From Desulfobulbaceae bacterium (GTDB lineage: Bacteria; Desulfobacterota; Desulfobulbia; Desulfobulbales; Desulfobulbaceae): a stretch of DNA of 24,000 bases. Both the position numbers and the translations under genes were made by a program. This document shows, one piece after another, positions 1,748 through 23,502 of this stretch. The notes beneath the pieces were generated by a model. The model was not told the origin of the DNA. It saw only the letters and a list, made by a program, of their open reading frames with translations, and ran no database searches. Each line of letters opens with the position of its first letter. Position 1 is the first letter of the stretch. The stretch is from the NCBI GenBank assembly GCA_011391865.1, contig JAABPV010000003.1, positions 14,726 through 38,725 on the forward strand, written 5' to 3'.

Positions 1748-2013
1748 GTTCGACCCCCCCGACTACCTTTGCAGGAGAAACCCTTGGTTTCTTGTCATCA
1801 GGGAGGAACCTTTTCTGCTTTCAGGATACCCGGCCCGGCAGAGGATGTAAAGAGTTTTCCGTTGAACCGTTGCTGTGCCCTGCCTGTTCATGCGCTGAAC
1901 GGGCAGGCAAAGACGTTTTACCTTGGAATTGGCTTCATTACATCGCCGATTGAGCCGATGACCTTAATGCTGAGTCTGGCGCGGTCAGCATGGGGTTTGC
2001 TGAATTCGTATAT

Positions 2014-3795
2014 TCACAATAATTCTGGTGGAATGACGCGGACTCGCACGCCGTTTTCTATAACAGAAACCTCTTCTATATTTTCTACTTCTTCGTTAGA
2101 AACAATATCTTTTGATAAATTTTTCTTAAATAGGCTTATTGTATCCTGACTTTCTTTTTGTACAAACTTACAATTTATTCTTTCTCCATTATTTAGAATG
2201 ACATCATATCCTAACACAATCTTATTTTCTACAGGAAAAATAGAGTTTTGATTGACCGCGCGTAATTTATATAAATCTTCCATTTTATATAGTTCATTTA
2301 TGATTTTGATTTTATCAGCAGGAATATTCATGCGTAGATTATCTCCAAAAAGATAAAAGCATCCATTGTTAAACTTAACAATTTCATTGCATGGTATTAT
2401 CCTTCCGTCATTCAAATGAATATCATATCCAAGTATATGTGAATCCTTTTGCTTATTTTCTATAGATTTTTCTTGCGCCTCTGCATAACCTCTTGCTGTA
2501 AGTTCTTTGCTTTGAATTAGAGATGCGCTTTTATTTTCAATGTCAAACGAATTATATGGGTCATTATCAGCTTTATTGATCAATACAATTAAAAATGTAG
2601 TTAAAATAACAACAAAAATACTGGCACTTGCCCTTGCAACTCCCCATTCTTTGTGATCAACAATGGATTTAGTTGATGTATCCCAGAGGGTCGTGCCGGT
2701 TTTTGTAAGTTTTCTATATGCAAACAGGCGTGTAAAAGAAGATAGAAAAGGTATTCCAAAACATTCGCCTTGAATATAGACTAAAAATGCTCTTTTGAAT
2801 GCAACCGGATATGAAAGTTTTTCTTCTTCAATATCTAAAACGCTTATGCCGAATATCCATTTGGCTGGAGTTGTTCCTATGCCTGCTATAAAAGCAGCTT
2901 CCATAGGTATCCATAAAATAGAGAGCATTACTCCAGCTATGATTGGATTACTTATAGCATTGACAAATGATTCTACATTAGAAGGAAAGAATAGTCCGAC
3001 GAAAAACGAAATAATAAAAATAGAAAATATACCAAACATTAAAACATCAGTTGTTCTTGCAAATAAACGTCGCCAAGGGTGATGTATGCCACCAAAAAAT
3101 GTTTTGCTTTGGTCGATTTCATTTGTTTTTCTATCAACGGAGATTTTATTACTCCGAATTTCTTTGGTCTCGCTCAAGAGAACCTTTGGAGGATTTTTTG
3201 ATTCGGCACGATAATATCCTTTGTTGAATTTACTTAATTGTTCCTCTATCTGCTCGTACTTTTTAGCAAGATGCTTCAGTTCCACATCATCGATCATCTT
3301 TAGATTTTTCCCTGTTTTCCTTAGATACCTTCGCACGGAATTGATGATATTTTCTTCATGTACACCATAGAATGCATCTCCTATTCCAGATAATGGAATA
3401 CTCAGAAAAACGAGTGTTCCAAGAATAGCAGGCCCCCATTCACGAGAGAAAACGGCAATAATAGCAAAAATAGAAGAACCTATTGAAGCATATGTCAACG
3501 CAGAAGCAAATTCTGAACGTGCAAAAAATGTAGCTAATTCAAGCGGCGGCAAAAAGATTGACGCATTGACCCGAAAGAACGTCTTATCTTCTTCATCAGC
3601 GAAAAAGTCTGGATTCTTAATAAGAATAGCATTTGCTAAATTTTGGTTGCGAGAATAGATCATCTGACAGTACGCTCTGATCATCGCGGCCACGACAGGC
3701 AGATACCACCACCACAGATTTTCTGTGTCCGTCGTAAAAAACAATACGGTGAACACGATTCCAGCAAAGAGCAAACTCCCTATTAGCGTGATCAT
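2014..3795 (-). CDS. AT-rich multi-pass membrane protein with a central RDD-like domain and two C-terminal repeats
   Basis: 593-aa ORF with an ATG start. RDD-family-like signature: HPWRRLFARTTDVLMFG ... TPAKWIFGISVLD ... TLWDTSTKSIV. Several hydrophobic helices. The C-terminus has two copies of an LGYD(I/V)xLN(D/N)G..I.C module. Composition is strongly AT-rich compared with its neighbours. Confidence 0.7.
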   Translation of the reverse strand: MITLIGSLLFAGIVFTVLFFTTDTENLWWWYLPVVAAMIRAYCQMIYSRNQNLANAILIKNPDFFADEEDKTFFRVNASIFLPPLELATFFARSEFASALTYASIGSSIFAIIAVFSREWGPAILGTLVFLSIPLSGIGDAFYGVHEENIINSVRRYLRKTGKNLKMIDDVELKHLAKKYEQIEEQLSKFNKGYYRAESKNPPKVLLSETKEIRSNKISVDRKTNEIDQSKTFFGGIHHPWRRLFARTTDVLMFGIFSIFIISFFVGLFFPSNVESFVNAISNPIIAGVMLSILWIPMEAAFIAGIGTTPAKWIFGISVLDIEEEKLSYPVAFKRAFLVYIQGECFGIPFLSSFTRLFAYRKLTKTGTTLWDTSTKSIVDHKEWGVARASASIFVVILTTFLIVLINKADNDPYNSFDIENKSASLIQSKELTARGYAEAQEKSIENKQKDSHILGYDIHLNDGRIIPCNEIVKFNNGCFYLFGDNLRMNIPADKIKIINELYKMEDLYKLRAVNQNSIFPVENKIVLGYDVILNNGERINCKFVQKESQDTISLFKKNLSKDIVSNEEVENIEEVSVIENGVRVRVIPPELL

Positions 3796-3822
3796 GACGT
3801 GTAATTATCCTATATTGCTCAA

Positions 3823-3893
3823 TTCGAATCCTGATAGGTGCGCCAAGGAAATTCAGGGAGTTGCTGCGAGTTTCGCGGTAACTCCCTTTTTTA
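3823..3893 (+). repeat. Direct repeat of the tRNA-Arg 3' end (T-loop to CCA) plus downstream terminator; attR-like tRNA remnant
   Basis: 3823-3855 ttcgaatcctgATaggtgcgccaaggaaattca matches 1046-1078 ttcgaatcctgCCaggtgcgccaaggaaattca (31/33). It is followed by a diverged but still foldable hairpin, gggagttgctgcg/cgcggtaactccc (3856-3886), and a T-run at 3887-3892. Confidence 0.8.
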
Positions 3894-3947
3894 TTTCGGC
3901 AGCCTTCAAGATGCAGTGACAGGCAGTTTAATTCTGAGCCGTATTGT

Positions 3948-3986
3948 GAATTTAACCCAAGTTGTAACCTGTAACAAATTGGGTTG
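3948..3986. repeat. Left inverted repeat plus a local hairpin (pairs with 4603-4619)
   Basis: aatttaacccaagttgt (3949-3965) equals the reverse complement of acaacttgggttgaatt (4603-4619) at 16/17 positions. A third inverted copy, acaaattgggtt (3974-3985), forms a 12-bp, 1-mismatch hairpin with 3954-3965. Confidence 0.6.
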
Positions 3987-4110
3987 TCACTACGTTTTTA
4001 GGACTGCTCTGTTTTGAACTCTTGCAGGAATTGCAGCCAGGCGGAACGCTGCGTCATGCGCTGCGGAACCGCTTTGTTCCGGCTGAAAACCCGCCGCAGC
4101 CGCCGGAAAA

Positions 4111-4383
4111 CGCGTTTGCATCGCCCTGATTCCAATTGGAACCGGGGCGTTTTCGATTGGAACCGGGCCAAAGTCAATTGGAATCGCCCTGATTCCAGTT
4201 GAAATTGACACGATTCCTGTTGGAATCAGCCCGGTTCCAATTGAAATCGCCCTGATTCCAATTGAAATTGCCCTGATTCCGATTGGAATTACCCCGATTC
4301 CAATCGGAAACGTTCCAATTCCAATTGACTTTGCCCTGATTCCAATCGACATTGACACGATTCCAATTGGAATCAGGGCAAAA
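4111..4383. repeat. Tandem array 1: 12 clear units plus 1 degenerate unit of 21 bp, consensus CCAATTGGAATCGCCCTGATT
   Basis: Units stay in constant phase from 4132, for example 4237 ccaattgaaatcgccctgatt, 4258 ccaattgaaattgccctgatt and 4174 tcaattggaatcgccctgatt. Across unit junctions the sequence forms the 16-bp palindrome GATTCCAATTGGAATC, which is perfect at 4359-4374, separated by 5-bp GCCCT spacers. Confidence 0.9.
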
Positions 4384-4600
4384 CAAGCGTGCTCCGCCGC
4401 AATTGAAACGAGCATCCTTCCGGCGCAGGCGGCGAAAAAACAGAATAATTCAGCAGAGCTGCTGTGAACGCGCAGAGACAGCCTTGCCTGCGGGAAAAGC
4501 GGATGCTTCAGGCTGGGCTGAACAAAAAAACTTCTGCATAAGGTTTATGCTCCTCTTTCCGCCCGGCATACGCAAGAAACTTTTCCGTGAACAGCAGAGG

Positions 4601-4624
4601 TCACAACTTGGGTTGAATTTAAGG
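4601..4624. repeat. Right inverted repeat (partner of 3949-3965)
   Basis: tcacaacttgggttgaatttaagg. See the left-repeat entry. Confidence 0.6.
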
Positions 4625-4661
4625 AACTGAAGCAGGTCTCGCAGCAATCGCCGGGAATGCG

Positions 4662-4702
4662 CAAGGGGAGTGCAAAGCATTTTGCCCCCCCCTTGTGTTT
4701 TT
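4662..4702 (+). terminator. Strong hairpin with a T-tract on the plus strand, abutting the stop codon of the convergent 4702-5349 gene
   Basis: Outer stem caagggg (4662-4668) / ccccttg (4689-4695), inner stem gcaaa/tttgc, followed by tgttttt (4696-4702). The minus-strand reading has no T-tract. Confidence 0.45.
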
Positions 4703-5349
4703 CACGCTGAAGCGTTATTTATCGCATCAGATCTCTGCGGCTCGCTGCTTCGGGTGTTGTCGAGCGTGGAATCTGTGGCCGCGCTCAGATCAAACGCCTG
4801 CCGGATCTTGCGTCCTATCTTGTCAACGACTGCGCTGCCGCCGCCAATCACGCCGCCAGTGACTATGACATCCACCAGCGCGAAAACAGTCTTCTGCGCT
4901 CCCTCCAGCACGGACTCATCCACCAGCCCGCTCAGGGCACGCACGCCAACCAAGCTGATCATCACGCCAAAGGCGAAGCTCAGGCAGTGCGCTTGGCGGG
5001 CGGTGTCCAGCCGGTACGCATCCAGCCGCTCCTGCTCTTCGGCAAGTCTGCGCAGGCTGACGACATCATCCCCGCCTTTCGCCTGAAGCCGTTTGATTTG
5101 CTCTTCTATCTGCTGCCGCCCCGGTGTTCTGCCCGAGATTAAAACCACCTCGACCGAGCGTTCGGCAAAGACGGCGACCACGAACAGCGACGTGATGATG
5201 CTCGTCAGCGCACCGTCCATGATTGAAAGGTCTTTGAAGGTCAGGGCGGAAAATTGCCCCCAATGCAGCACTGCGGCGATGCCGCCGCAGACAAGCAGCA
5301 GCGCGCCAATGTTGCGCCGGTTCTCCCGGACGACTTGCAAATCAATCAT
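4702..5349 (-). CDS. Hypothetical membrane protein with a central charged/coiled segment
   Basis: 215-aa ORF with an ATG preceded by AGGAGG (revcomp of cctcct at 5356-5361). Hydrophobic helices (IGALLLVCGGIAAVL, ITSLFVVAVFA, LSFAFGVMISLVGV, VIVTGGVIGGG) surround QQIEEQIKRLQAKGGDDVVSLRRLAEEQERLDAYRLD. I do not recognise a family. Confidence 0.65.
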   Translation of the reverse strand: MIDLQVVRENRRNIGALLLVCGGIAAVLHWGQFSALTFKDLSIMDGALTSIITSLFVVAVFAERSVEVVLISGRTPGRQQIEEQIKRLQAKGGDDVVSLRRLAEEQERLDAYRLDTARQAHCLSFAFGVMISLVGVRALSGLVDESVLEGAQKTVFALVDVIVTGGVIGGGSAVVDKIGRKIRQAFDLSAATDSTLDNTRSSEPQRSDAINNASA

Positions 5350-9194: not shown

Positions 9195-10253
9195 ATGAAA
9201 ACAAAAATGGTCTTGCAGACAGCGGCGTTGCTGCTTCTGTCAGCAGGTGTTGCTCATGCCGGTGGCAACAAATTTGGCAAGCAGCAGAAAAACTGGACCT
9301 GCGACGACTGCACACCCGCATGTTTGCAGAATCCTTATGACAAGGGCTGCCCGGACATCTGCAAGTCGCCAGCATGTCAGAATTCTTGCGACTCTTGCCC
9401 TGATTCCTGCAAACAGCAGCCTGGTGCGCCGGGCTGCCCGGAGATATGCAGCGATGTTAAGTGCCAGACCTGCACTGACTGTGCTCCTGAGTGCAAGACC
9501 AGCAACGCTCCGGCAACCTGCCCGGACATCTGCAAGGACATCAAATGCTATAGCTGCGACGACTGTTCAGCTGAATGCATAGAGACCCCGGCTGGTCCGA
9601 ACTGCCCGCCCGCATCCATCTGTGGCGATCTGGAATGCAACATCTGCGACAAACTGCCCAAGAATTGCCCAGCCACCTGCAAGGAAAGCCCGGACGATCC
9701 GGCAAAATGCCCGGCAGAGTGCAAGAGTGTTCCTGAGAAATGCCTGATGCCCGCCGTTGAGCAGGAAAAGGAGCCGGAAACAACGGTTGATCTTGGGCCG
9801 TTCCGCTTCCTCGGCGATGTTGGCTACTACAAGCAGACAGATCCAGCTGACTACATTTTTGGCCGCATCGGTGTGGAGTGGAGTCCTTTCGCCGCAGGCA
9901 GCCGGTTTGAGCAGGTTTCCTTCACCGGCATGATCGGCGCAGCTGCGCAGGTCAAAGGCACGGACGGCGACGACGCGCTGCTGCTTGATGTGATGACCAA
10001 CTACAACTGGCAGGCTGGCGATGTGAACGGCTGGGTTGGTTTGGGCTTGGGCGGCTGGATCACCTCTGGCGACGTGGAAGACGATTCCGGCGACAGCGAC
10101 CTTGACATGATCGTCAATGCTGGTGCCCGCGTGTACGGCGATCCGCAGGCGTTCAACATCTCTGCCTTCTTGGAGATTCGGAGCGCGATCGACGAGTTTG
10201 ACGGCTTGGCCGAGTACGGACGCTTTGGCGGCGGCCTGCGGTTCAAGTTCTAA
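9195..10253 (+). CDS. Exported Cys-rich protein with a C-terminal beta-barrel-like domain, paralog 2
   Basis: AAGGAGAG RBS. Signal peptide MKTKMVLQTAALLLLSAGVAHA. About 30 Cys within aa 36-183 (nt 9300-9743), in roughly 28-aa modules such as CQTCTDCAPECKTSNAPATCPDICKDIK. The C-terminal roughly 150 aa align with paralog 1 at high identity by eye (FR.(I/L)GD.GY.KQTDPADYIFGR.G.EWSPFAAG ... AEYGRFG.GLRFKF). Confidence 0.8.
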   Translation: MKTKMVLQTAALLLLSAGVAHAGGNKFGKQQKNWTCDDCTPACLQNPYDKGCPDICKSPACQNSCDSCPDSCKQQPGAPGCPEICSDVKCQTCTDCAPECKTSNAPATCPDICKDIKCYSCDDCSAECIETPAGPNCPPASICGDLECNICDKLPKNCPATCKESPDDPAKCPAECKSVPEKCLMPAVEQEKEPETTVDLGPFRFLGDVGYYKQTDPADYIFGRIGVEWSPFAAGSRFEQVSFTGMIGAAAQVKGTDGDDALLLDVMTNYNWQAGDVNGWVGLGLGGWITSGDVEDDSGDSDLDMIVNAGARVYGDPQAFNISAFLEIRSAIDEFDGLAEYGRFGGGLRFKF

Positions 10254-11618: not shown

Positions 11619-11939
11619 ATGCCAAATCAGCTTATTGAACTCCAGGATGGTCTGCTTGTCGAGGTGGAGGTACCGCCCGATCAGGTGCGTCAGATTTCCG
11701 GCGGGTTGCCAGAGCAGGTGGACAAATCAATCGATGCTGTCTACACCTTGCTGCTCAACGCCTGCCGTCCAGTGGTTTCAGTCTGGAGTGAACTGAACAA
11801 GGATATGTCTATCTCTGGTGCCGAGGTTGAGCTGCAACTTGGCTTTTCCGCTTCCGGCTCGGTCTTTCTTGCCAAAGCAAACGGCAGCGCGAATCTGAAA
11901 ATCAAGCTGTCAATCTCGCCAAAATCGGATAAGTCCTGA
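11619..11939 (+). CDS. Trypco2-like (trypsin co-occurring domain 2 / CU044_2847-like) small protein
   Basis: 106 aa, GAGAGGAG RBS. N-terminal LIELQDGLLVEVEV and C-terminal AEVELQLGFSASGSVFLAKANGSANLKIKLSI match, from memory, the family pattern (..dG..v.VEV ... vEfGvkls.eaGaviaka..eg.lkvkLtw). The stop is 2 nt before the protease gene. Confidence 0.65.
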   Translation: MPNQLIELQDGLLVEVEVPPDQVRQISGGLPEQVDKSIDAVYTLLLNACRPVVSVWSELNKDMSISGAEVELQLGFSASGSVFLAKANGSANLKIKLSISPKSDKS

Positions 11940-11941
11940 AA

Positions 11942-13666
11942 ATGGAACTCGACAAGCGGGCAATTTTCCTCCTGACCAGTGCCGACAGCGGCAAGAAAGC
12001 CTTCGGCACCGGCTTTGCGGTGGCCTGCAAGGAGGGCAAATTATATCTCCTTACCTGCGCCCATGTGGTGGAGCAGCTTGGCGGCAGAGTTGTCGCCAGC
12101 GGAGCCGATGCCGTCCCGCATGAAGCGGCGATTGAGGCGGCTGGCTCGTCCAACACGGTTGATCTTGCTTTGTTGAGCATCCGTCATGACGGCACAACGC
12201 CGCCGCTGCTCAATCGGCCTGCGAAAGGAAAGCCGGACATGCCGTTTCAGATTCTCGGCTACGGCCCTCATTTTGGAGCCAGAGAAAACTATGTGCTCCG
12301 CGATATTCAAGGCCGTTTGGGCAAGCCGATTTCCTTTAAAGCTGTCGGCATAAAAAGCATAGAGGCATGGGACATTCATGTTGACGACGATGAATTTTCC
12401 AAGCTCCAAGGCGGCTACAGCGGCTCTCCGCTCTGCGATGCCGCAGGAAGGCTGCTCGCGGTTGTCAGTCATAATGCCGATCCTGCCGCTGGACAGCGCG
12501 GTCATGCCGTTGCCGTCGTCAATCTGCAAGCCATCTTCCCGGAGATCGAGCAACTCCTTCCTGCTTTTACCGGTCTGACTGAAGAACATCTTGATCCGGC
12601 GGCCCGCATCAATCAAGCGATGATGCAGCTTTCTGGCCGCGCCTTTGAAATTTGCTCTATTTTTCCCGCTATCGGCTTGGAGCTGGAGCGGATGCGGAAA
12701 GAGGGCATCAGTGAGGACGACAAGGAAATCTTTGCCGAGATCAACAGATTTACTGAACGGACAATTGCTGCCGAAGCCTTTATTTTTTTCTTCAGCAATC
12801 TGGACAACAGAAGAAAAGCCGTCGCCAGCCGTCCTGATTACACAAAGCTCGCCGGGCAGCTGCAAAATGGTCAGGTCATCCTCTGTCTTGGGCAAGAACT
12901 GTCGCATCTGCTTGGCGTAGAGCTGCCTTCAACCGAGGCGATCAAGCAACATCTCAGCCGGAACGGTTTTCATGGCCCTTTGTCAGAACTTTGCGAGCAA
13001 AAAGAGCTGGCCTTGAACAGCAGCCGCGCTGATCTGGTCAATGACATCCGCGCTCTGTTCAAAGCAGACCAGAAAAAATCTCCAGTCGCGCTGCACGAGC
13101 TGCTGGCCAATCTGAAGAATCCATTTTTAGTCATCTCGACCGCCTATGACGATCTGCTGGAGCAAAGTCTGCGCGGCAGGCGGAAATTTGCCGTGATTCA
13201 TCCGAACATGGAAGACAAACGATGTCTGCTGCGCTGTTCCGATCAAAAGGATGTCTTCTGCACCCCGGAAGAACTGTCCAGCTTCAGCCTGCTGGAAAAC
13301 GGCTATGCGGTCATTTATCAGCTCCGGGGCGGCATTTTCAATGACAAAGGCCATCTTCTCCTGTCAGAACGCGATTATTTCACCTTCACCCGCTTCATGC
13401 AGCAGCAGTTTCCTGACTACATCGGCAGCAAACTGAAAAATTCGCTCCATTCGCTCTGGTTCCTCGGCCATCACCCGGAAAGCTGGGAAGAACGCCTGCT
13501 GATTAAGTCGCTTCAGGAGCTGCGGCACGACCGTGCGCCGTCGCTGGCGATTCAGGAAGGTGGCTCTTCGTTTGCCCAGTCGTTCTGGCAGGATAGAAAA
13601 GTGAAGGTCTATGATTGCCCGCTCAAGGACTTTGTGCAGGAACTTGCTTTGTGCGCAGCGAATTGA
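11942..13666 (+). CDS. Trypsin-like (S1/Trypsin_2) serine protease fused to a divergent SIR2_2-like domain
   Basis: 574 aa. Protease triad contexts: LLTCAH41VV, VD74LALL, GGYS160GSP. The C-terminal half (aa about 300-560) follows SIR2_2 order: VILCLGQELS...LPS (in place of flGAGvS..lPsw), LVISTAYDDLLEQ (in place of iiTTNYDdLlE), IYQLRGG...LLLSERDYF (in place of klHGs...lvlTeeDY) and LWFLGHHPESWE (in place of llFiGySl.D). Confidence 0.8.
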   Translation: MELDKRAIFLLTSADSGKKAFGTGFAVACKEGKLYLLTCAHVVEQLGGRVVASGADAVPHEAAIEAAGSSNTVDLALLSIRHDGTTPPLLNRPAKGKPDMPFQILGYGPHFGARENYVLRDIQGRLGKPISFKAVGIKSIEAWDIHVDDDEFSKLQGGYSGSPLCDAAGRLLAVVSHNADPAAGQRGHAVAVVNLQAIFPEIEQLLPAFTGLTEEHLDPAARINQAMMQLSGRAFEICSIFPAIGLELERMRKEGISEDDKEIFAEINRFTERTIAAEAFIFFFSNLDNRRKAVASRPDYTKLAGQLQNGQVILCLGQELSHLLGVELPSTEAIKQHLSRNGFHGPLSELCEQKELALNSSRADLVNDIRALFKADQKKSPVALHELLANLKNPFLVISTAYDDLLEQSLRGRRKFAVIHPNMEDKRCLLRCSDQKDVFCTPEELSSFSLLENGYAVIYQLRGGIFNDKGHLLLSERDYFTFTRFMQQQFPDYIGSKLKNSLHSLWFLGHHPESWEERLLIKSLQELRHDRAPSLAIQEGGSSFAQSFWQDRKVKVYDCPLKDFVQELALCAAN

Positions 13667-14016
13667 GCATTTTTGGTTTTTCGGATGCCAAAATCGCACT
13701 GGAAAACGTCTTGTTTGGAACAGCAAACGTGGCATTCGCGATTCAAAACGTCTCGTTTGACGCTGGCAACGACGTGTTTGCAGCAGCGAATGCCTCATTC
13801 GCAGTGTGAAACGTGGCATTCGCAACAGCGAATGAGGCATTTTGAACAGCGAACGTCTCGTTTTGAACTGGCAACGGCGTGTTCGCAGCAGCAAACGTGG
13901 CATTCGCAGCGTGAAACGTGACGTTTGCAACAGCGAATGAGGCATTTTGAACAGCGAACGTCTCGTTTGAAACCGGCAACGCGGCCTTCGCAGCATGAAT
14001 TGAACAGGCGGAATCA
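13660..14016. repeat. Tandem array 2: 14 clear plus about 3 degenerate units of 21 bp. Each unit is a 17-bp imperfect palindrome GCRAAYG-NNN-CRTTYGC plus a 4-bp linker
   Basis: Units in constant phase, for example 13786 gcgaatgCCTcattcgc-agtg (perfect 7-bp arms), 13744 caaaacgTCTcgtttga-cgct, 13891 gcaaacgTGGcattcgc-agcg, and 13828 = 13933 gcgaatgaggcattttgaaca (identical). A higher-order 105-bp (5-unit) period is visible (13828-13932 versus 13933 onward). The array spans the gap from the stop of 11942-13666 to the ATG at 14016. Confidence 0.9.
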
Positions 14017-17000
14017 TGAACAATCTTTCGGCAGCTTGCTTGGAACCCTACATCGGCCTGAAACCGTTCACCGAGCAGGAGAAAGACCGCTTTTTTGGCC
14101 GCGACCGCGAGACAAGCATTCTGCTGGATAAAATCCGCGCCAACCGCCTGACCTTGCTGCTGGCGGCCAGCGGCGTTGGCAAAAGCTCGCTGCTGCAAGC
14201 AGGCATCATGCCGGCGTTTCGGGCGGACGGCCATGCGGAACTGATCTATCACAACAGCTGGGCTGCCGAGCCGGGCGCGGCACTCAGGGAAAGCATCCTG
14301 AATCATTACGCCAAACGGCCCGGCCTGAGCGGCTTTGGCGGCGATTTCACCCAGCTTTCCCTGAAAGACACCTTGCTGGCCTGCACCCTCTTCGGCAGCG
14401 GCCAGCAGATTCTGCTGCTTGATCAATTTGAAGAGTTTTTCAACTATCAGCGGTTCCAAAAGGGCTTCAAAGCGTTTGTCGAAGAGCTGAGTGCGGCTGT
14501 TCTTGACCGCAGCCTCCCGGCCTGCTTTGTTTTTTCGATGCGGGAGGACTTCGCCCTTGAACTCAACGCCTTCAAGCCCTTTCTGCCCGGCGTGTTTGAC
14601 AGCTATTTCCGCTTGGAGAAGCTGACCCGCGACCAAGCGCGGCTGGCGATTGAGCAGCCGCTACAGCAAATTGGCTGGAGCTTCGCGCCAAAGCAGGACA
14701 GCAAAGAAGGATTGCTGGAGCAGGTGCTGGATGATCTTGCCAAGCGCGAGCAGGAGCGGCAGTTCGGCGTGCAGGAGCTGCTTGCGCTGCAAGAGCTGCC
14801 CTTGCTGGTGGAGCCGCCGCATTTGCAGATTGTCTGCCGGGAGCTGTGGGACAATCATCGGGATGAGGCGGTCAAGCAAATCACCCATGCGGCCTATCAC
14901 AAGGCTGGTCGGGCTGAAGGCATTTTAGAAACCTACTTTCTCCGCAAGATTTGCCAATTCAGCAAAAAGGAGCAGGTGCTTGCCTCAGCCTCTTTTGATC
15001 ATCTCGTTGGCCAGCGGGCCACCAAAGTGGCGCATCCGCTGGAGCGATTGGCCGAATTGACCCGCGCTGATGCCAATGCGCTGAAGCTGATGCTGGATAA
15101 GCTCCAAGATTGCGCTGTGCTGCGCCGCCAAAAGCGCGGTGAAGAGTTCTGGTACGAGCTGTATCACGACATTTTTTCTGAATCCATTGACAAGTGGAAC
15201 CGGGAATTCAAACATCGGCAGCGAAAGAAACGGCTGGCCGTGGGAACTGCTGCGGTGCTGATTGCAGGCGGCTTGTTATTTGCGGGCAACAACTGGCGGG
15301 CGAATTATTATGGCCGGTATTTGCAGCTGAGTCCAAAGGAAAGCATTTCTGATCGGATCGAAGTGTATCAGGGAACAGAGAAGAGTTTAGATTTGTTTCA
15401 GATACGCAACTTTGGCTATGAAACTCTTTTTCTCCGACAGGAGCTTGAGGCGGACAAGCGGTTTGGAACAAGCCTAATTTATGAGAAAAGCGAAATGCAA
15501 GCCGATATAGTCAGCGACATGCCGATGGTGGAGCGCATTCCTTTCTACATGGCGACAGGATTATACGGAAAAGGCCGCGAACTTGCTGACTCCATTTTGC
15601 GGGAGAACAAAGCGGAGAACATTCAGTTCCTTCCAAAGCACTTTGCACAGGTGCGGACAAAGGCGAGCGTTACCCTATTGTCCAGTTTGTTTGAAAAACA
15701 AAAGCTGAGGGGAGCGGTTATTACAGCTTTCGTCCAGTTAAAATCGAAGTCGTCGGTGCCGGATATGATTGAGATCCTGACCGACTCTGGTTATGGCAAA
15801 ATGAACAGATCTGTGCTCGTCCGGCTGATGTTGGAATTGGCGGTACCGGAGATCGTCAAACTCTTAGAGGACAGAGATAAAGATGAAAGTGTGCGGAGTG
15901 CGGCAGTCAGTGCCCTCGGCGAGCTGAAGGCGGACTCGGCGGTGCCGGAGATCGTCAAACTTCTGACGGACAGCGAGTCAAACGTGCGGAGTGCGGCAGC
16001 CAGCACCCTCGGCGAGCTGAAGGCCAAGGCTGCGGCTCAAGATATCGTCAGACTCCTGAGAGACAGCGATATAAACGTGCGGAATGCGGCGGTCAAAGCT
16101 CTCGGCAAACTGAAGGCCAAGGCAGCGGCCCAAGATATCGTCAGGCTCCTGACGGACAGCGATGAATACGTGCGGATAAGTGCGGTCTCCGCCCTCAGTG
16201 AGCTGAAGGCGGACTCGGCGGTGCCGGAGATCGTCAAACTTCTGACGGACAGCAATGAATACGTGCGGAGTGTGGCGGTCGAAGCTCTCGGCAAACTGAA
16301 GGCCAAGGCAGCGGCCCAAGATATCGTCAGGCTCCTGACGGACAGCGATCCAAACGTGCGGAGTGCGGCAGCCAAAGCCATAGGTAAACTGAAGGTGGAC
16401 TCGGCGGTGCCCGATATCGTCAAACTTCTGACGGACAGCAATGAATACGTGCGGAGTACGGCGGTCGAAGCTCTCGGCAAACTGAAGGCCAAGGCAGCGG
16501 CCCAAGATATCGTCAGGCTCCTGACGGACCGCAATAGAAACGTGCAGGAAGAGGCAGCCAAAGCCATAGGTAAACTGAAGGTGGAGGCGGTGACAACGGA
16601 GATTGTCAAGCTCTTGGCGGACAGCGATCCAGACGTGAGGAGTACGGCGGTCGCAGCTCTTCGCAAACTGAAGGCGGAGTCGGCGGTGATAACGGAGATT
16701 ATTAATCTCTTGAGAAACAGCAATGCAGACGTGCGGAGTACGGCGTTTTACGCCCTCGGCGAGCTGAAGGCGGACTCGGCGGTGCCGGAGATCGTCAAAC
16801 TTCTGACGGACAGCGATTCAGACGTGCGGCATAAGGCGGTCTTCGCTCTCGGCAAGATGAAAGCAGAGGCGGCAGTGCCGGAGATCGTCAAACTTCTGAC
16901 GGACAGCAGTTCAGACGTGCGGAGGGCGGCGGTCAAAGCCCTCGGCGAGCTGAAGGCGGACACGGCGGTGTCGGAGATCGCCAGGCTTTTGGAGGACAGC

Positions 17001-18512
17001 AATGAAGAAGTGCGCGGTAGAGCAATCGAAGCCCTCGGCAAGCTGAAGGCGGACTCGGCGGCACCAGAGATCATCAAACTCTGGGCAGGCAGCGATTCCA
17101 ACGTGCGGATTCCGGCGGTTGAAGCTTTCGGCAAGCTGAAGGCGGACTCGGCGGTGCCAGATATCGTTAAGCTTCTGGTGGACAGCGATTACAACGATAA
17201 ATACGTGTGGAGTGGGGCAGTCGAAGCCCTCGGCGAGCTGAAGGCGGACTCAGCGGTGCCGGAGATCGTCAAGCTCCTGACGGACAGCGGTTGGGACGTG
17301 CGGAGGGCGGCGGTCAAAGCCCTCGGCGAGCTGAAGGCGGAAACGGCAGTGCCGGAGATCGTCAGGCTCCTGACGGACAGCGATTCAGACGACGTGCGGC
17401 TTCAAGCAGCTCTTGCTTTGGCAAGGATGAATGATTCCTCTCCTCAGCTTCAGGCTTGGCGGGAGCAGGCGTTCAAGGAGGCGGAGGAGAAAATTGCCGA
17501 TGATGAAAAAAAAGAGGCAGCCGAACTTCTTGCCCCTGTTTTCACCGCGCAGGCCGCAACGCTGCTTGCCCAGCTTATGGATGATGCGGATCAGAATGTG
17601 GCGCAAGAGGCGGTTAAGGCCATTGGCTTTGCCGCCGAATTCCATCCTGAATGGATTCCAAAAGACAAGCTGCTGGCCTTGCTCAAGCATCCTGAAATAG
17701 ACATGCGGGAAACGGCTGTCACCAGCCTTGGCCAGCTCATCGCCTTCCGGGGCGAGAAAAAGGCTGCAAATTTTCCAGAGCTGGATCAGCGCGTCCGCAA
17801 TGTTCTTTCCAGCCTGATCAAAGATACGCAGCAGAAAACCAGCATCCGAGCGACCGCCATTGATGCCTTTGGCGACACCGGACGGGAAGAATGCGCGCAA
17901 TTCCTGTTCGAGCTGCTGCCCGCATTCGACCGCAGCAAGGAGGAATCCCTGCACTCGCGCTGCATCTTCTGGCTTGGCCGCATGAACCACGCCCCGGCCC
18001 GCGACTACGTGGAAGACGAGCTGCGCAAGCTGGAACAGGCCAAGGCGGAATGGCGCGAGCAGCGCGACCAGAACAGCGGCAGCATCGCGGACAAAGATGA
18101 TGCGTGGTGGCAGGTGCGGGAATACCGCCTCGGCAGCGCATTGGCCCGCATCGCTTCAGCAGAACGCGGGATTGAGCTGCTCGGTCATCCGCTGCATTAT
18201 GTACGCCAAGCGGCTGTCCGCGCCTTGGCAGGCAAGGCCGACGCTGACTTGATCGGCAAAATCATCCACGCCCACCAAAACTTCGACCCGGACGACCTGC
18301 CTTCGCCCTTCCCCTATACCGCCTTCCAAGCCATTGACCTCGCATTGTGGAATTTGGAATACACCGGCACGGCGGCTGATCTGGCCAAACTAAAAACCAT
18401 CCTCAGCACCGTCCCAGAAAAAAGCAATATTCCCGGCCAAGACGGGGCAATCAAAGAACGGCTGGAGTGGACGATTGAGCGGCTGCAAAGCAAAACAGCC
18501 GAGCGCAAATAA
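14016..18512 (+). CDS. nSTAND-type (novel STAND) P-loop NTPase, single predicted TM helix, long HEAT/PBS-lyase-like repeat array
   Basis: 1498 aa. N-terminal hallmark PYIGLKPFTEQEKDRFFGRDRE. Walker A LLLAASGVGKSS (K56). Walker B ILLLDQFEEFF. PHLQIVCRELW and WYELYHDIF...W motifs are typical of this STAND clade. KHRQRKKR is followed by LAVGTAAVLIAGGLLFAG (aa 407-424). Then come 17 regular 31-aa units of the form ADSAVPEIVKLLTDSxxxVRxAAVxALGELK, plus degenerate HEAT-like units to the C-terminus. Confidence 0.85.
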   Translation: MNNLSAACLEPYIGLKPFTEQEKDRFFGRDRETSILLDKIRANRLTLLLAASGVGKSSLLQAGIMPAFRADGHAELIYHNSWAAEPGAALRESILNHYAKRPGLSGFGGDFTQLSLKDTLLACTLFGSGQQILLLDQFEEFFNYQRFQKGFKAFVEELSAAVLDRSLPACFVFSMREDFALELNAFKPFLPGVFDSYFRLEKLTRDQARLAIEQPLQQIGWSFAPKQDSKEGLLEQVLDDLAKREQERQFGVQELLALQELPLLVEPPHLQIVCRELWDNHRDEAVKQITHAAYHKAGRAEGILETYFLRKICQFSKKEQVLASASFDHLVGQRATKVAHPLERLAELTRADANALKLMLDKLQDCAVLRRQKRGEEFWYELYHDIFSESIDKWNREFKHRQRKKRLAVGTAAVLIAGGLLFAGNNWRANYYGRYLQLSPKESISDRIEVYQGTEKSLDLFQIRNFGYETLFLRQELEADKRFGTSLIYEKSEMQADIVSDMPMVERIPFYMATGLYGKGRELADSILRENKAENIQFLPKHFAQVRTKASVTLLSSLFEKQKLRGAVITAFVQLKSKSSVPDMIEILTDSGYGKMNRSVLVRLMLELAVPEIVKLLEDRDKDESVRSAAVSALGELKADSAVPEIVKLLTDSESNVRSAAASTLGELKAKAAAQDIVRLLRDSDINVRNAAVKALGKLKAKAAAQDIVRLLTDSDEYVRISAVSALSELKADSAVPEIVKLLTDSNEYVRSVAVEALGKLKAKAAAQDIVRLLTDSDPNVRSAAAKAIGKLKVDSAVPDIVKLLTDSNEYVRSTAVEALGKLKAKAAAQDIVRLLTDRNRNVQEEAAKAIGKLKVEAVTTEIVKLLADSDPDVRSTAVAALRKLKAESAVITEIINLLRNSNADVRSTAFYALGELKADSAVPEIVKLLTDSDSDVRHKAVFALGKMKAEAAVPEIVKLLTDSSSDVRRAAVKALGELKADTAVSEIARLLEDSNEEVRGRAIEALGKLKADSAAPEIIKLWAGSDSNVRIPAVEAFGKLKADSAVPDIVKLLVDSDYNDKYVWSGAVEALGELKADSAVPEIVKLLTDSGWDVRRAAVKALGELKAETAVPEIVRLLTDSDSDDVRLQAALALARMNDSSPQLQAWREQAFKEAEEKIADDEKKEAAELLAPVFTAQAATLLAQLMDDADQNVAQEAVKAIGFAAEFHPEWIPKDKLLALLKHPEIDMRETAVTSLGQLIAFRGEKKAANFPELDQRVRNVLSSLIKDTQQKTSIRATAIDAFGDTGREECAQFLFELLPAFDRSKEESLHSRCIFWLGRMNHAPARDYVEDELRKLEQAKAEWREQRDQNSGSIADKDDAWWQVREYRLGSALARIASAERGIELLGHPLHYVRQAAVRALAGKADADLIGKIIHAHQNFDPDDLPSPFPYTAFQAIDLALWNLEYTGTAADLAKLKTILSTVPEKSNIPGQDGAIKERLEWTIERLQSKTAERK
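15840..17432 (+). repeat. Intragenic 93-bp (31-aa) tandem repeats, 17 units, with a 186-bp two-unit higher-order period
   Basis: Strings such as gcggactcggcggtgccggagatcgtcaaacttctgacggacagc recur almost verbatim. 16209-16394 and 16395-16580 are near-identical at the nucleotide level. Unit types alternate: ADSAVPEIVKLL and AKAAAQDIVRLL. Confidence 0.9.
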
Positions 18513-22468: not shown

Positions 22469-23440
22469 TTAACTACGCTGAATAATTTGTTCCGGGTTAT
22501 TTTTTTGGATGTCCAAAATTTTTTTTGTCACGTTCAGCCAATCTACTCCAAATCTTTTTTTGTTCTCTGGAAAAATATCCATCATAAATATTGCGTCCCA
22601 TCCTTGCTGTGTTATGTTAGCTTGGAAGGATGGAGAATATGCTTCTGCAAGCCTTCTCTTTTCTTCTGGTGACAACCTTTTTTTCTTGTTTTCCTTGAGA
22701 AATTGCTCACGCGTCCGATTCATTCTTGCGACTCGCTGATCTTCTCGCATTGAAACAATTAAATTTTCTAACATTTCATCATAGAGAAGAACAGGAAATA
22801 TTGTTCTGTCAATTTTGCAATTTACTTCATTAGATGCACTAACTATAGCATCGTCAAAATTTGTTGGTTGATCTGATAAACGTCTATAAAACTCTTGCGT
22901 CGAATCGAGAACCTGTTTTGGTTTTAAATCATCATAAGGCCCTGCGATCACAAGGGCAGGAGCTGTTAGCCTTGATTCTTTCAATGCCTTAACAAAGGTT
23001 AAAATCCCTGCATATCCTTGACAAGCTGCGATCAAGACGATCAAATTAAATCGCGTTGCAATATTCAATCTTTGAAGAGGGTTAGTTAATTCATCCCATG
23101 TCAGCCCATTTACTCCTTTTTCTCTGTCCGACAATCCTTTCGTTGAACCATGCGCCTCAAGGTGAATAAGCGGAATTATTCCGTGATGCTCGGCATCTGT
23201 CGCGGCCCGCTCTATCGCGGCTAGCACTTCATCTTTGCTTGAACATTTCCAATATATTGATTGAAAATATTTATATTCCTGCATCCGTTTATGCAGCTCT
23301 CTCCCTGTATGAGGGTCATTTGACGACAACCACTCTATAATCCAAATATGTGTTGGCCTCTTGAAATAACCTTCCTTTGGCAATCCGTAAAGCTCGTCTA
23401 TCAATTTTTGTTCATCTTCTGTCAATTTAATGTTATCCAT
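22469..23440 (-). CDS. AT-rich hypothetical protein with a caspase/CHAT-like His-Cys dyad arrangement
   Basis: 323-aa ORF with an ATG start and a visibly lower GC content than its neighbours. IIPLIHLEAH97GSTKGL and FNLIVLIAAC140QGYAG each follow a hydrophobic strand, as in clan CD peptidases (xHG ... xxC-x-G). The C-terminal part is Lys/Arg/Glu-rich and helical. Confidence 0.6.
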   Translation of the reverse strand: MDNIKLTEDEQKLIDELYGLPKEGYFKRPTHIWIIEWLSSNDPHTGRELHKRMQEYKYFQSIYWKCSSKDEVLAAIERAATDAEHHGIIPLIHLEAHGSTKGLSDREKGVNGLTWDELTNPLQRLNIATRFNLIVLIAACQGYAGILTFVKALKESRLTAPALVIAGPYDDLKPKQVLDSTQEFYRRLSDQPTNFDDAIVSASNEVNCKIDRTIFPVLLYDEMLENLIVSMREDQRVARMNRTREQFLKENKKKRLSPEEKRRLAEAYSPSFQANITQQGWDAIFMMDIFPENKKRFGVDWLNVTKKILDIQKNNPEQIIQRS

Positions 23441-23502
23441 TTCAAGTTATTGAATAATTGTTTATTTTCGCCGCAGTCGCAGCAACCTACGCCTCCGCTT
23501 CT

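Follow-up and report, generated by a model that had tools for sequence, protein, structure and literature searches.

Array 1, a tandem array of 21-bp palindromic units in the DNA analysed here (a stretch of 24,000 nucleotides from a Desulfobulbaceae contig, hereafter the window), is the core of a discrete element of 659 bp that occupies positions 3955-4613 and contains no gene. The reading we favour, with a probability of roughly 0.8, is that the array is the internal, fast-evolving minisatellite of a non-autonomous, MITE-like composite repeat built like a BOX element. The element has defined boundaries, terminal inverted repeats (TIRs) and a flanking duplication, its copies occur in multiple unrelated contexts in cable bacteria with arms of high identity, and whole units have been gained or lost between them. 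From one end to the other it consists of a 16-nt TIR, a left arm of unique sequence, the array itself, in which 9-14 units of 21 bp follow one another in tandem and each carries a degenerate 16-bp palindrome, then a second unique arm on the right and finally the TIR in inverted orientation. Mobilisation would be in trans, through a DDE-type transposase for which the TIRs are the recognition sites and whose cut would have a stagger of about 8 bp, and the array would gain and lose units, one to three at a time, through replication slippage or unequal recombination, in keeping with a 63-bp super-period. Its place beside an RDD-family gene and about 9 kb from a defence module would be incidental.

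An earlier note on this DNA had described array 1 as 12 phase-constant units plus one degenerate unit, with 16-bp palindromes formed at the unit junctions and separated by 5-bp spacers. Laying the sequence out in a 21-nt register confirmed both points and gave a column consensus of GATTCCAATTGGAATC followed by GCCC(C/T), in which the 16-mer is a perfect palindrome. That description was accurate as to the units, but it missed that array 1 is the internal minisatellite of a dispersed 659-bp element. The partial degenerate unit (4107-4127) has ATCGCCCT at its 3' end. Tandem Repeats Finder (TRF) scored the 21-bp period at 160 and the 63-bp super-period more strongly at 218. Dyads with at most three mismatches were found at eight sites in the window, every one of them in phase within array 1, compared to 0.16 expected, and none of 100 shuffles reached eight. 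A perfect dyad is present in a single unit only (4359), and the units average 2.6 mismatches to the consensus. Self-complementarity was 0.73 for array 1 and 0.61 for array 2, which lies in the defence module, compared to about 0.40 in shuffles. The statement that both are non-chance 21-bp dyad arrays therefore held up as judged by TRF, dyad counts and shuffles. Array 1 lies between an RDD-family gene (2014-3795, minus strand) and a gene for a 215-aa protein without family matches (4702-5349, minus strand), in a region with a GC content of about 52%, near the genome background of 52-63%.

With regard to the limits of the element, homology to L125, L126, L127, L129 and L132 (loci fetched for comparison carry L numbers) spans the window from ~3952/3954 to ~4615 only, at 87-91% identity, and these limits coincide with a 22-nt inverted repeat that was found independently. 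The TIRs are 16 nt long (ACCCAAGTTGTRACCT); every full copy has the termini ACCCAAGTTGTRACCT…AGGTCAYAACTWGGGT, the latter being the reverse complement, and the DNA outside these termini differs by locus. In the 1.2 Mb scanned, the TIR motif is confined to element ends. The coordinates of the individual features are given in Table 1. The flanking duplication is a perfect 8 bp in the window (TGAATTTA, P ~4e-5) and matches at 9/10 positions over 10 bp at L125 (P ~1e-4), the two thus being unequal in length (8 vs 10 bp), and L132 has none. The hairpin at the left end (dG -12.1, z -2.2) is conserved as a perfect 11-bp stem in L073, L130 and L132. An IS200/IS605 or PATE-type element was considered on account of this hairpin and rejected, since clear TIRs and duplications are present. 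The whole element is predicted to fold end-to-end with a dG of -165 kcal/mol (z -14), the TIRs being paired with each other. The reading frame of the left arm differs from copy to copy, and a search of plasmids with the right arm gave no match.

Table 1. Coordinates in the window of the 659-bp element, its flanking duplication and the comparator array 2.
Feature	Position	Strand	Remarks
Left target-site duplication copy TGAATTTA	3947-3954	.	Identical to 4614-4621, abuts the element end; chance of 8/8 ~4e-5
Left terminal inverted repeat ACCCAAGTTGTAACCT	3955-3970	+	Reverse complement of 4598-4613 with one mismatch; inter-copy homology starts here
Inward partial third copy of the TIR core CAAATTGGGTT	3975-3985	-	Left-end hairpin with 3954-3964
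Unique left arm, non-repeat	3971-4106	.	~96% identical to the L125 copy at an unrelated locus
Degenerate terminal unit …GCGTTTGCATCGCCCT	4107-4127	.	Left junction of the array, kept in the window, L073, L116, L064 and L053
Array 1, 12 x 21-bp units	4128-4379	.	16-bp dyad GATTCCAATTGGAATC plus spacer GCCCY; 63-bp higher-order period
Unique right arm	4380-4597	.	~98% identical to L125
Right terminal inverted repeat AGGTCACAACTTGGGT, reverse complement of ACCCAAGTTGTGACCT	4598-4613	-	Inter-copy homology stops here
Right target-site duplication copy TGAATTTA	4614-4621	.	Same as 3947-3954
Array 2, comparator outside the element	~13655-14005	.	~14-16 units of 21 bp (AACGTSKCRTTYGCAACAGCR), between the Trypsin-SIR2 and nSTAND1-HEAT genes

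Two strong plus-strand hairpins with U-tracts, both resembling intrinsic terminators, bracket the element a short way beyond its ends (3855-3897, z -6.1; 4662-4705, z -4.7), and no plus-strand gene is evident upstream of either. The second of these had been reported earlier as a hairpin with a T-tract at 4662-4702 and taken to suggest plus-strand transcription of the region. The hairpin is real (dG -24.7, z -4.7), but it is located outside the element and therefore says nothing about transcription of array 1.

Other copies were sought by a census with the pattern TTCCAATTG-N12-TTCCAATTG in one genome per species, and the matches listed were mostly chance singles or unrelated arrays selected by the pattern. 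Among these matches, real arrays of the same family were found only in cable bacteria and Desulfobulbaceae, namely on four contigs of Ca. Electronema sp. TJ, in Ca. Electrothrix gigas and in one Desulfobulbaceae MAG. Further copies were retrieved by a protein search with the 141-aa open reading frame (ORF) that runs through the array, a route that was used because gene callers call ORFs through such arrays. Some of the copies are low-coverage metagenome contigs and possibly chimeric. BLAST showed that the similarity between copies runs past the array into the unique flanks. The TIR-type copies occur in at least four distinct contexts: between the RDD and 215-aa genes in the window, beside TatA-TatA/DUF4160 in L125, and with other flanks in L130 and L132. 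Ca. Electronema sp. TJ has three copies at contig ends, where a dispersed repeat would be expected, given that assemblies of cable bacteria are known to break at such repeats (PMC10926707).

Between different loci the unique arms are 95-98% identical, and the arrays there differ by insertions and deletions of whole units. The number of units per copy ranges from 9 to 14 and also varies between strains at one locus, as seen for L125 and L129 (11 vs 9) and for L132 and L133 (11 vs 12). Between strains the array is in fact the least conserved part of the locus, with 82-94% identity plus unit indels vs 97-99% identity outside it, in a comparison that calls for caution because of low-coverage contigs.

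Moreover, arrays of the array-1 unit family occur without these TIRs in L116, L128, L053/L036 and L121, and L134 has other inverted repeats; the array may therefore predate, or be separable from, the present vehicle. By analogy with boxB in S. suis, it may be a module that is carried by more than one vehicle (PMC3049150). A metagenome scan gave one real array (L121) and three chance sites. In L121 (metagenome contig JACCEE012628685.1, 870-1260), about 11 dyad units of the same family have the hairpin GGGCGAAAAATTTTTCGCCC on either side, with 29-nt arms that are 93% complementary, and this array is positioned upstream of a pentapeptide-repeat gene; it represents a different vehicle for the same array. 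In L134, the conserved core (window ~4037-4575) is flanked by a different inverted repeat, TGGCCGAGCA/TGCTCGGCCA, and by further repeats of the GGCCGAGCA type, an arrangement that may be a nested insertion into another repeat family.

The searches also brought up a number of arrays and sites of other kinds. One of the census matches listed (L011) is a coding coiled-coil that is unrelated to array 1. In a Gemmatimonadales MAG (L062, 2890-3245), an array with a 21-bp period, a 63-bp super-period and the centre CAATTG contains the dyads CAATTGACGG/CCGTCAATTG and has the string ATTCCAATTGACTTT in common with a unit of the window; its 20- and 22-bp units exclude coding, and its resemblance to the window array may be an effect of the search pattern or real. 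Tandem arrays of 21 bp in Bacteroidota (L113 5696-6060, L093 896-1162, L045 2829-3067 and L097 2029-2284), likewise selected by the search pattern, have an CCAATTGGAAT core followed by an A/T-rich tail, and one frame translates as IPIGFV…. Scans of viral contigs for the TIR, the dyad and the unit of array 2 gave nothing or single chance sites. On one IMG/VR contig (L145), four dyad-like sites with at most three mismatches are located at 1713-1779 with spacings of 22, 11 and 33 bp, far from the single exact dyad of that contig at 9236.

The element has the TIRs at the limits of homology, the several unrelated contexts, the lack of coding capacity and the highly base-paired fold that are expected of a MITE, but with a GC content of about 52% it is not AT-rich, a property that is also listed for MITEs (PMC3049150). 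No autonomous insertion sequence (IS) with matching TIRs was found in the window, in the 1.2 Mb of loci, on the viral contigs or in plasmids, and no transposase in the window or on the viral contigs. An empty site was sought by means of the 215-aa neighbour protein; there was no record of that protein, and no empty site was recovered.

The DNA of the window is cable-bacterial, the closest named relatives of the Trypsin-SIR2 protein (11942-13666) being from Ca. Electronema and Ca. Electrothrix. Two islands of low GC content (30-41% vs a background of 52-63%) are present, of which the first (2001-3800) encodes a 593-aa RDD-family protein and directly adjoins the element, and the second (22500-23500) contains a 323-aa ORF without Pfam matches. 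An ORF with a DUF3800 match (938-1717) overlaps tRNA-Arg(ACG) (992-1068) on the same strand; since the Pfam match covers residues 148-237 only, the true start of this gene must be further downstream.

The defence module in the window consists of Trypco1, then Trypsin/SIR2 and then nSTAND1-HEAT. As a candidate defence module, Trypco1-(VapB-PIN)-Trypsin/SIR2-nSTAND1/HEAT (window 11619-18512; L135, L139, L140) is conserved and widespread in cable bacteria. The VapB-PIN pair is missing from the window and is found between Trypco1 and Trypsin-SIR2 in L135, whose SIR2 is 96% identical, and in Ca. Electrothrix sp. YB6. The nSTAND gene contains a coding tandem array of 93 bp (31-aa HEAT) at 15891-17391 in the window, 8803-10056 in L135 and 13448-14591 in L139; its copy number differs between close strains, the products being 1498, 1426 and 1318 aa.

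Array 2 has the consensus dyad GCAAACG-nnn-CGTTTGC and a 105-bp super-period. The array, of about 350 bp, occurs only in the lineage of the window (L135-L138). Ca. Electronema sp. JM and Ca. Electrothrix sp. YB6 lack it; there, the genes for Trypsin-SIR2 and nSTAND follow each other without a spacer, sharing an ATGA overlap, and are probably translationally coupled (sites compared: window 13640-14020, L139 11670-11790 and L140 11640-11760). In the window, array 2 is flanked by a duplicated junction, GCAGC[AT]GAATTGA, and it gives the SIR2 protein a new C-terminus and stop (…ELALCAAN* vs …LEAAL*). It has no TIRs, no homolog in any fetched locus, no match on viral contigs and no other copy, and homology between the two arrays was looked for and not found. 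The earlier note had proposed that both arrays share a mechanism. They are indeed both recent, lineage-specific additions with the same period, but with array 2 lacking both TIRs and further copies, the link between them is weak, and a shared origin or a common binder family is at most possible. As to the census of 21-bp-period arrays put forward at the time as a check on this idea, no further array of this kind is present in ~43 kb from cable bacteria (L139, L140) that had been obtained without reference to the array.

Array 2 fits well with the view that such an array can arise in situ by slippage as a local, non-mobile minisatellite, considering the duplicated gene junction in its flanks, its lack of TIRs and the lack of other copies; the TIR-less arrays of the array-1 family fit with it too. 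For array 1 itself, whose likeness to other loci would then have to reflect vertical descent or recombination, we regard this as highly improbable: the array brings with it about 400 bp of unique arms, TIRs and a duplication, and these arms recur 95-98% identical in unrelated contexts. Even more improbable is that array 1 encodes a real heptad-repeat protein, represented by a minus-strand ORF of 141 aa (3990-4415) with (I/S)(P/S)IGIRA repeats. The ORF, with its IPIGIRA heptads, does have an ATG and spans the entire array, three subfamilies (window, L053 and L128) have a minus-strand ATG where the array ends on the right, and the best frames at L053/L036 differ by 6 synonymous to 10 non-synonymous changes, slightly above random. 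However, the ORF has no Pfam or PADLOC match, and the protein database search returned only nine singleton relatives of 106-214 aa with no Pfam domain; in the alignment of these relatives, the C-terminal flank of P0004-P0006 turned out to be window DNA in another frame. In L116 the ATG is absent and the ORF overlaps neighbouring genes or features, stops occur in L053 and L036, L121 (found by DNA alone) has stops in all six frames, and the substitutions at L053/L036 have no 3-periodicity. A perfect consensus array is stop-free in 5/6 frames by construction, so long ORFs on both strands arise automatically, and the window frame is open on the opposite strand as well. On the basis of six-frame translation of all copies, ORF comparison, the protein search and the synonymous/non-synonymous counts, a coding heptad repeat was rejected, and the frameshifts, stops and lost ATG among copies bear out the initial view of array 1 as part of a non-coding stretch. 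The palindromes could instead be kept for base-pairing, in an array that works as a structured RNA or, at the DNA level, through hairpins or cruciforms: every unit is able to fold into a hairpin, the fold of the whole element has a z of -14 and a terminator-like hairpin lies downstream on the plus strand (4662-4702). This is very unlikely, because the symmetric positions do not co-vary; in 103 unique units from 16 copies, 27 compensated cases were found at the eight symmetric pairs vs 34 expected (permutation p 0.96), and mutual information at these pairs (0.026) was below background (0.064). An apparent compensated unit in L053/L036, ATGTCAATTGACAT, was discarded for want of statistical support. 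Moreover, mismatches of the G.T type (94) vs the A.C type (73) give no decisive strand bias, Rfam at the gathering threshold matched tRNA only (permissive settings gave generic miRNA-hairpin matches far under threshold), no sigma-70-like promoter was found in 3700-4800, and the downstream hairpin is outside the element.

More weight, though still on the unlikely side, is given to the possibility that array 1 is a platform of sites for a dimeric, sequence-specific DNA-binding protein, perhaps a regulator, a protein of the nucleoid or centromere-like type, or the transposase of the element itself. The element would spread such platforms round the genome; the two explanations, mobile element and binding platform, do not exclude each other. 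The consensus is a perfect 16-bp dyad at a constant phase of 21 bp, and since 21 bp corresponds to two helical turns, all dimers would share one face of the helix. In the 103 unique units, dyad positions have a mean of 1.21 bits, and the centre of the spacer has 0.30-0.45 bits. The profile of information content has mirror symmetry, and the half-sites vary independently without compensation, as half-site recognition would predict, but a mirror-symmetric spectrum is also expected from strand-symmetric mutation of a palindrome. At L053/L036, where two species have an array in front of the same gene, identity is 92.7% within the array compared to 77-81% for the flanking intergenic DNA (Fisher p 3.5e-6), with substitutions concentrated in the spacer. 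That an orthologous array is better conserved than its flanks makes a protein-binding role for the dyads possible; it fits nucleotide-level selection on the dyads, and equally well either a repeat of more recent origin than the flanking DNA or homogenisation of the repeat. Junk DNA would be expected to show such a pattern only in the latter two cases. Read by eye, a good -35/-10 promoter follows directly downstream of the array in L116 and L053. Perfect dyads, on the other hand, make up only 0-2 of the 9-14 units per copy, the units averaging 2.3-4.7 mismatches; not one isolated dyad was found beyond the arrays in 162 kb of cable-bacterial sequence, and no DNA-binding gene linked to the copies was found in the window or in the neighbourhoods of the other copies. 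The array is also hypervariable between strains (82-94% identity and unit indels, compared to 97-99% outside). The idea of a family of dimeric binders, raised in the earlier note, thus gains from the conservation of dyad core over spacer and of one orthologous array over its flanks, but loses from the hypervariable array and the lack of isolated dyads; dyads that serve as functional binding sites would be a modest residual possibility.

When the MITE-like element is compared with known systems, the closest architecture is that of the BOX elements, which consist of boxA-boxB(n)-boxC with a variable number of boxB; S. suis has the same boxB array combined with end modules of different kinds (PMC3049150). 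Like BOX in S. pneumoniae and S. suis, the present element is non-coding, dispersed and intergenic with a strong predicted fold, and it has end modules of inverted-repeat character round a short tandem module whose copy number varies by locus and strain (PMC3049150). The likeness is one of architecture only, and no sequence relationship is expected. Unlike boxB, which is 45 bp, the internal unit is 21 bp and itself a 16-bp palindrome, and 9-14 units exceed the usual number of boxB; the element measures 600-660 bp, and it resides in a cable bacterium of the deltaproteobacteria. Target-site duplications can be seen at some copies of the present element; for BOX, they were not clearly evident (PMC3049150). 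With bacterial MITEs such as Correia elements and Nezha, the element has in common the TIRs, a target-site duplication at some of its copies, the lack of coding, many intergenic copies and a base-paired fold, together with a presumed mobilisation in trans by an IS transposase (PMC3049150). It differs from most of them in being larger, in not being AT-rich, in having an internal higher-order tandem array and in that no parent IS was found.

Intergenic arrays of short palindromes with variable copy number are also typical of REP/BIME. Mobilisation of REPs depends on RAYT tyrosine transposases, and REPs are not known to have TIRs or duplications. A GTAG or CGTC tag marks the REP super-families (PMC3733652). 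The present unit (GATTCCAATTGGAATCGCCCY) has neither tag, the units are strictly tandem at 21 bp and the element has TIRs and duplications; membership in REP/BIME therefore fails. Tandem dyad-symmetric sites at a spacing compatible with the helical repeat give the array some resemblance to iteron and centromere arrays, and if it bound a protein it would work in their manner. F-plasmid sopC consists of 12 x 43-bp repeats, each with a 16-bp inverted repeat, and the lambda ori iterons and tandem ARG boxes (21 bp centre to centre) are arrays bound by dimeric proteins. In contrast to these, the present element has many dispersed chromosomal copies and degenerate units, and a search for Pfam domains revealed no initiator, ParB, ParR or regulator gene in the window or beside the other copies. 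Because of this lack of a linked binding-protein gene, assignment to the iteron or centromere arrays fails. Array 2 is reminiscent of the mycobacterial MIRUs, tandem repeats with units of 46-101 bp that are placed between operon genes at the stop/start overlap; its position is the same, but it occupies one locus and has a 21-bp unit.

Cable-bacterial genomes have been described in the literature as rich in IS and fragmented by repeats, and a literature search for the dyad or for cable-bacterial MITEs gave no description of this element or its dyad. The element thus makes up a new repeat family in these bacteria, one that belongs to a known kind of mobile repeat and is defined by its ends ACCCAAGTTGTRACCT, its 16-bp dyad and its size. 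Its recognition removes a tempting misreading, as array 1 is neither a heptad-repeat protein nor a bespoke regulatory array tied to a SIR2/nSTAND defence module. It also has practical consequences: gene callers make spurious hypothetical proteins of 106-214 aa from the element, short-read assemblies break there, and strains could be told apart by their differing number of units.

Should the dyads bind protein, the family would illustrate how arrays of binding sites can be distributed by a mobile element. A bolder version, which we consider distinctly unlikely, is that the dyads bind a putative dimeric protein of cable bacteria, and that the MITE-like element and other vehicles would spread platforms of 9-14 sites, phased at 21 bp, upstream of many genes. 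If this were true, array 2 would be an independent case of the same array-building process, with a different binder and uncoupling two defence genes, and the family as a whole would constitute a network for cis-regulation or chromosome organisation, spread by transposons, in a bacterium that lives as multicellular filaments.
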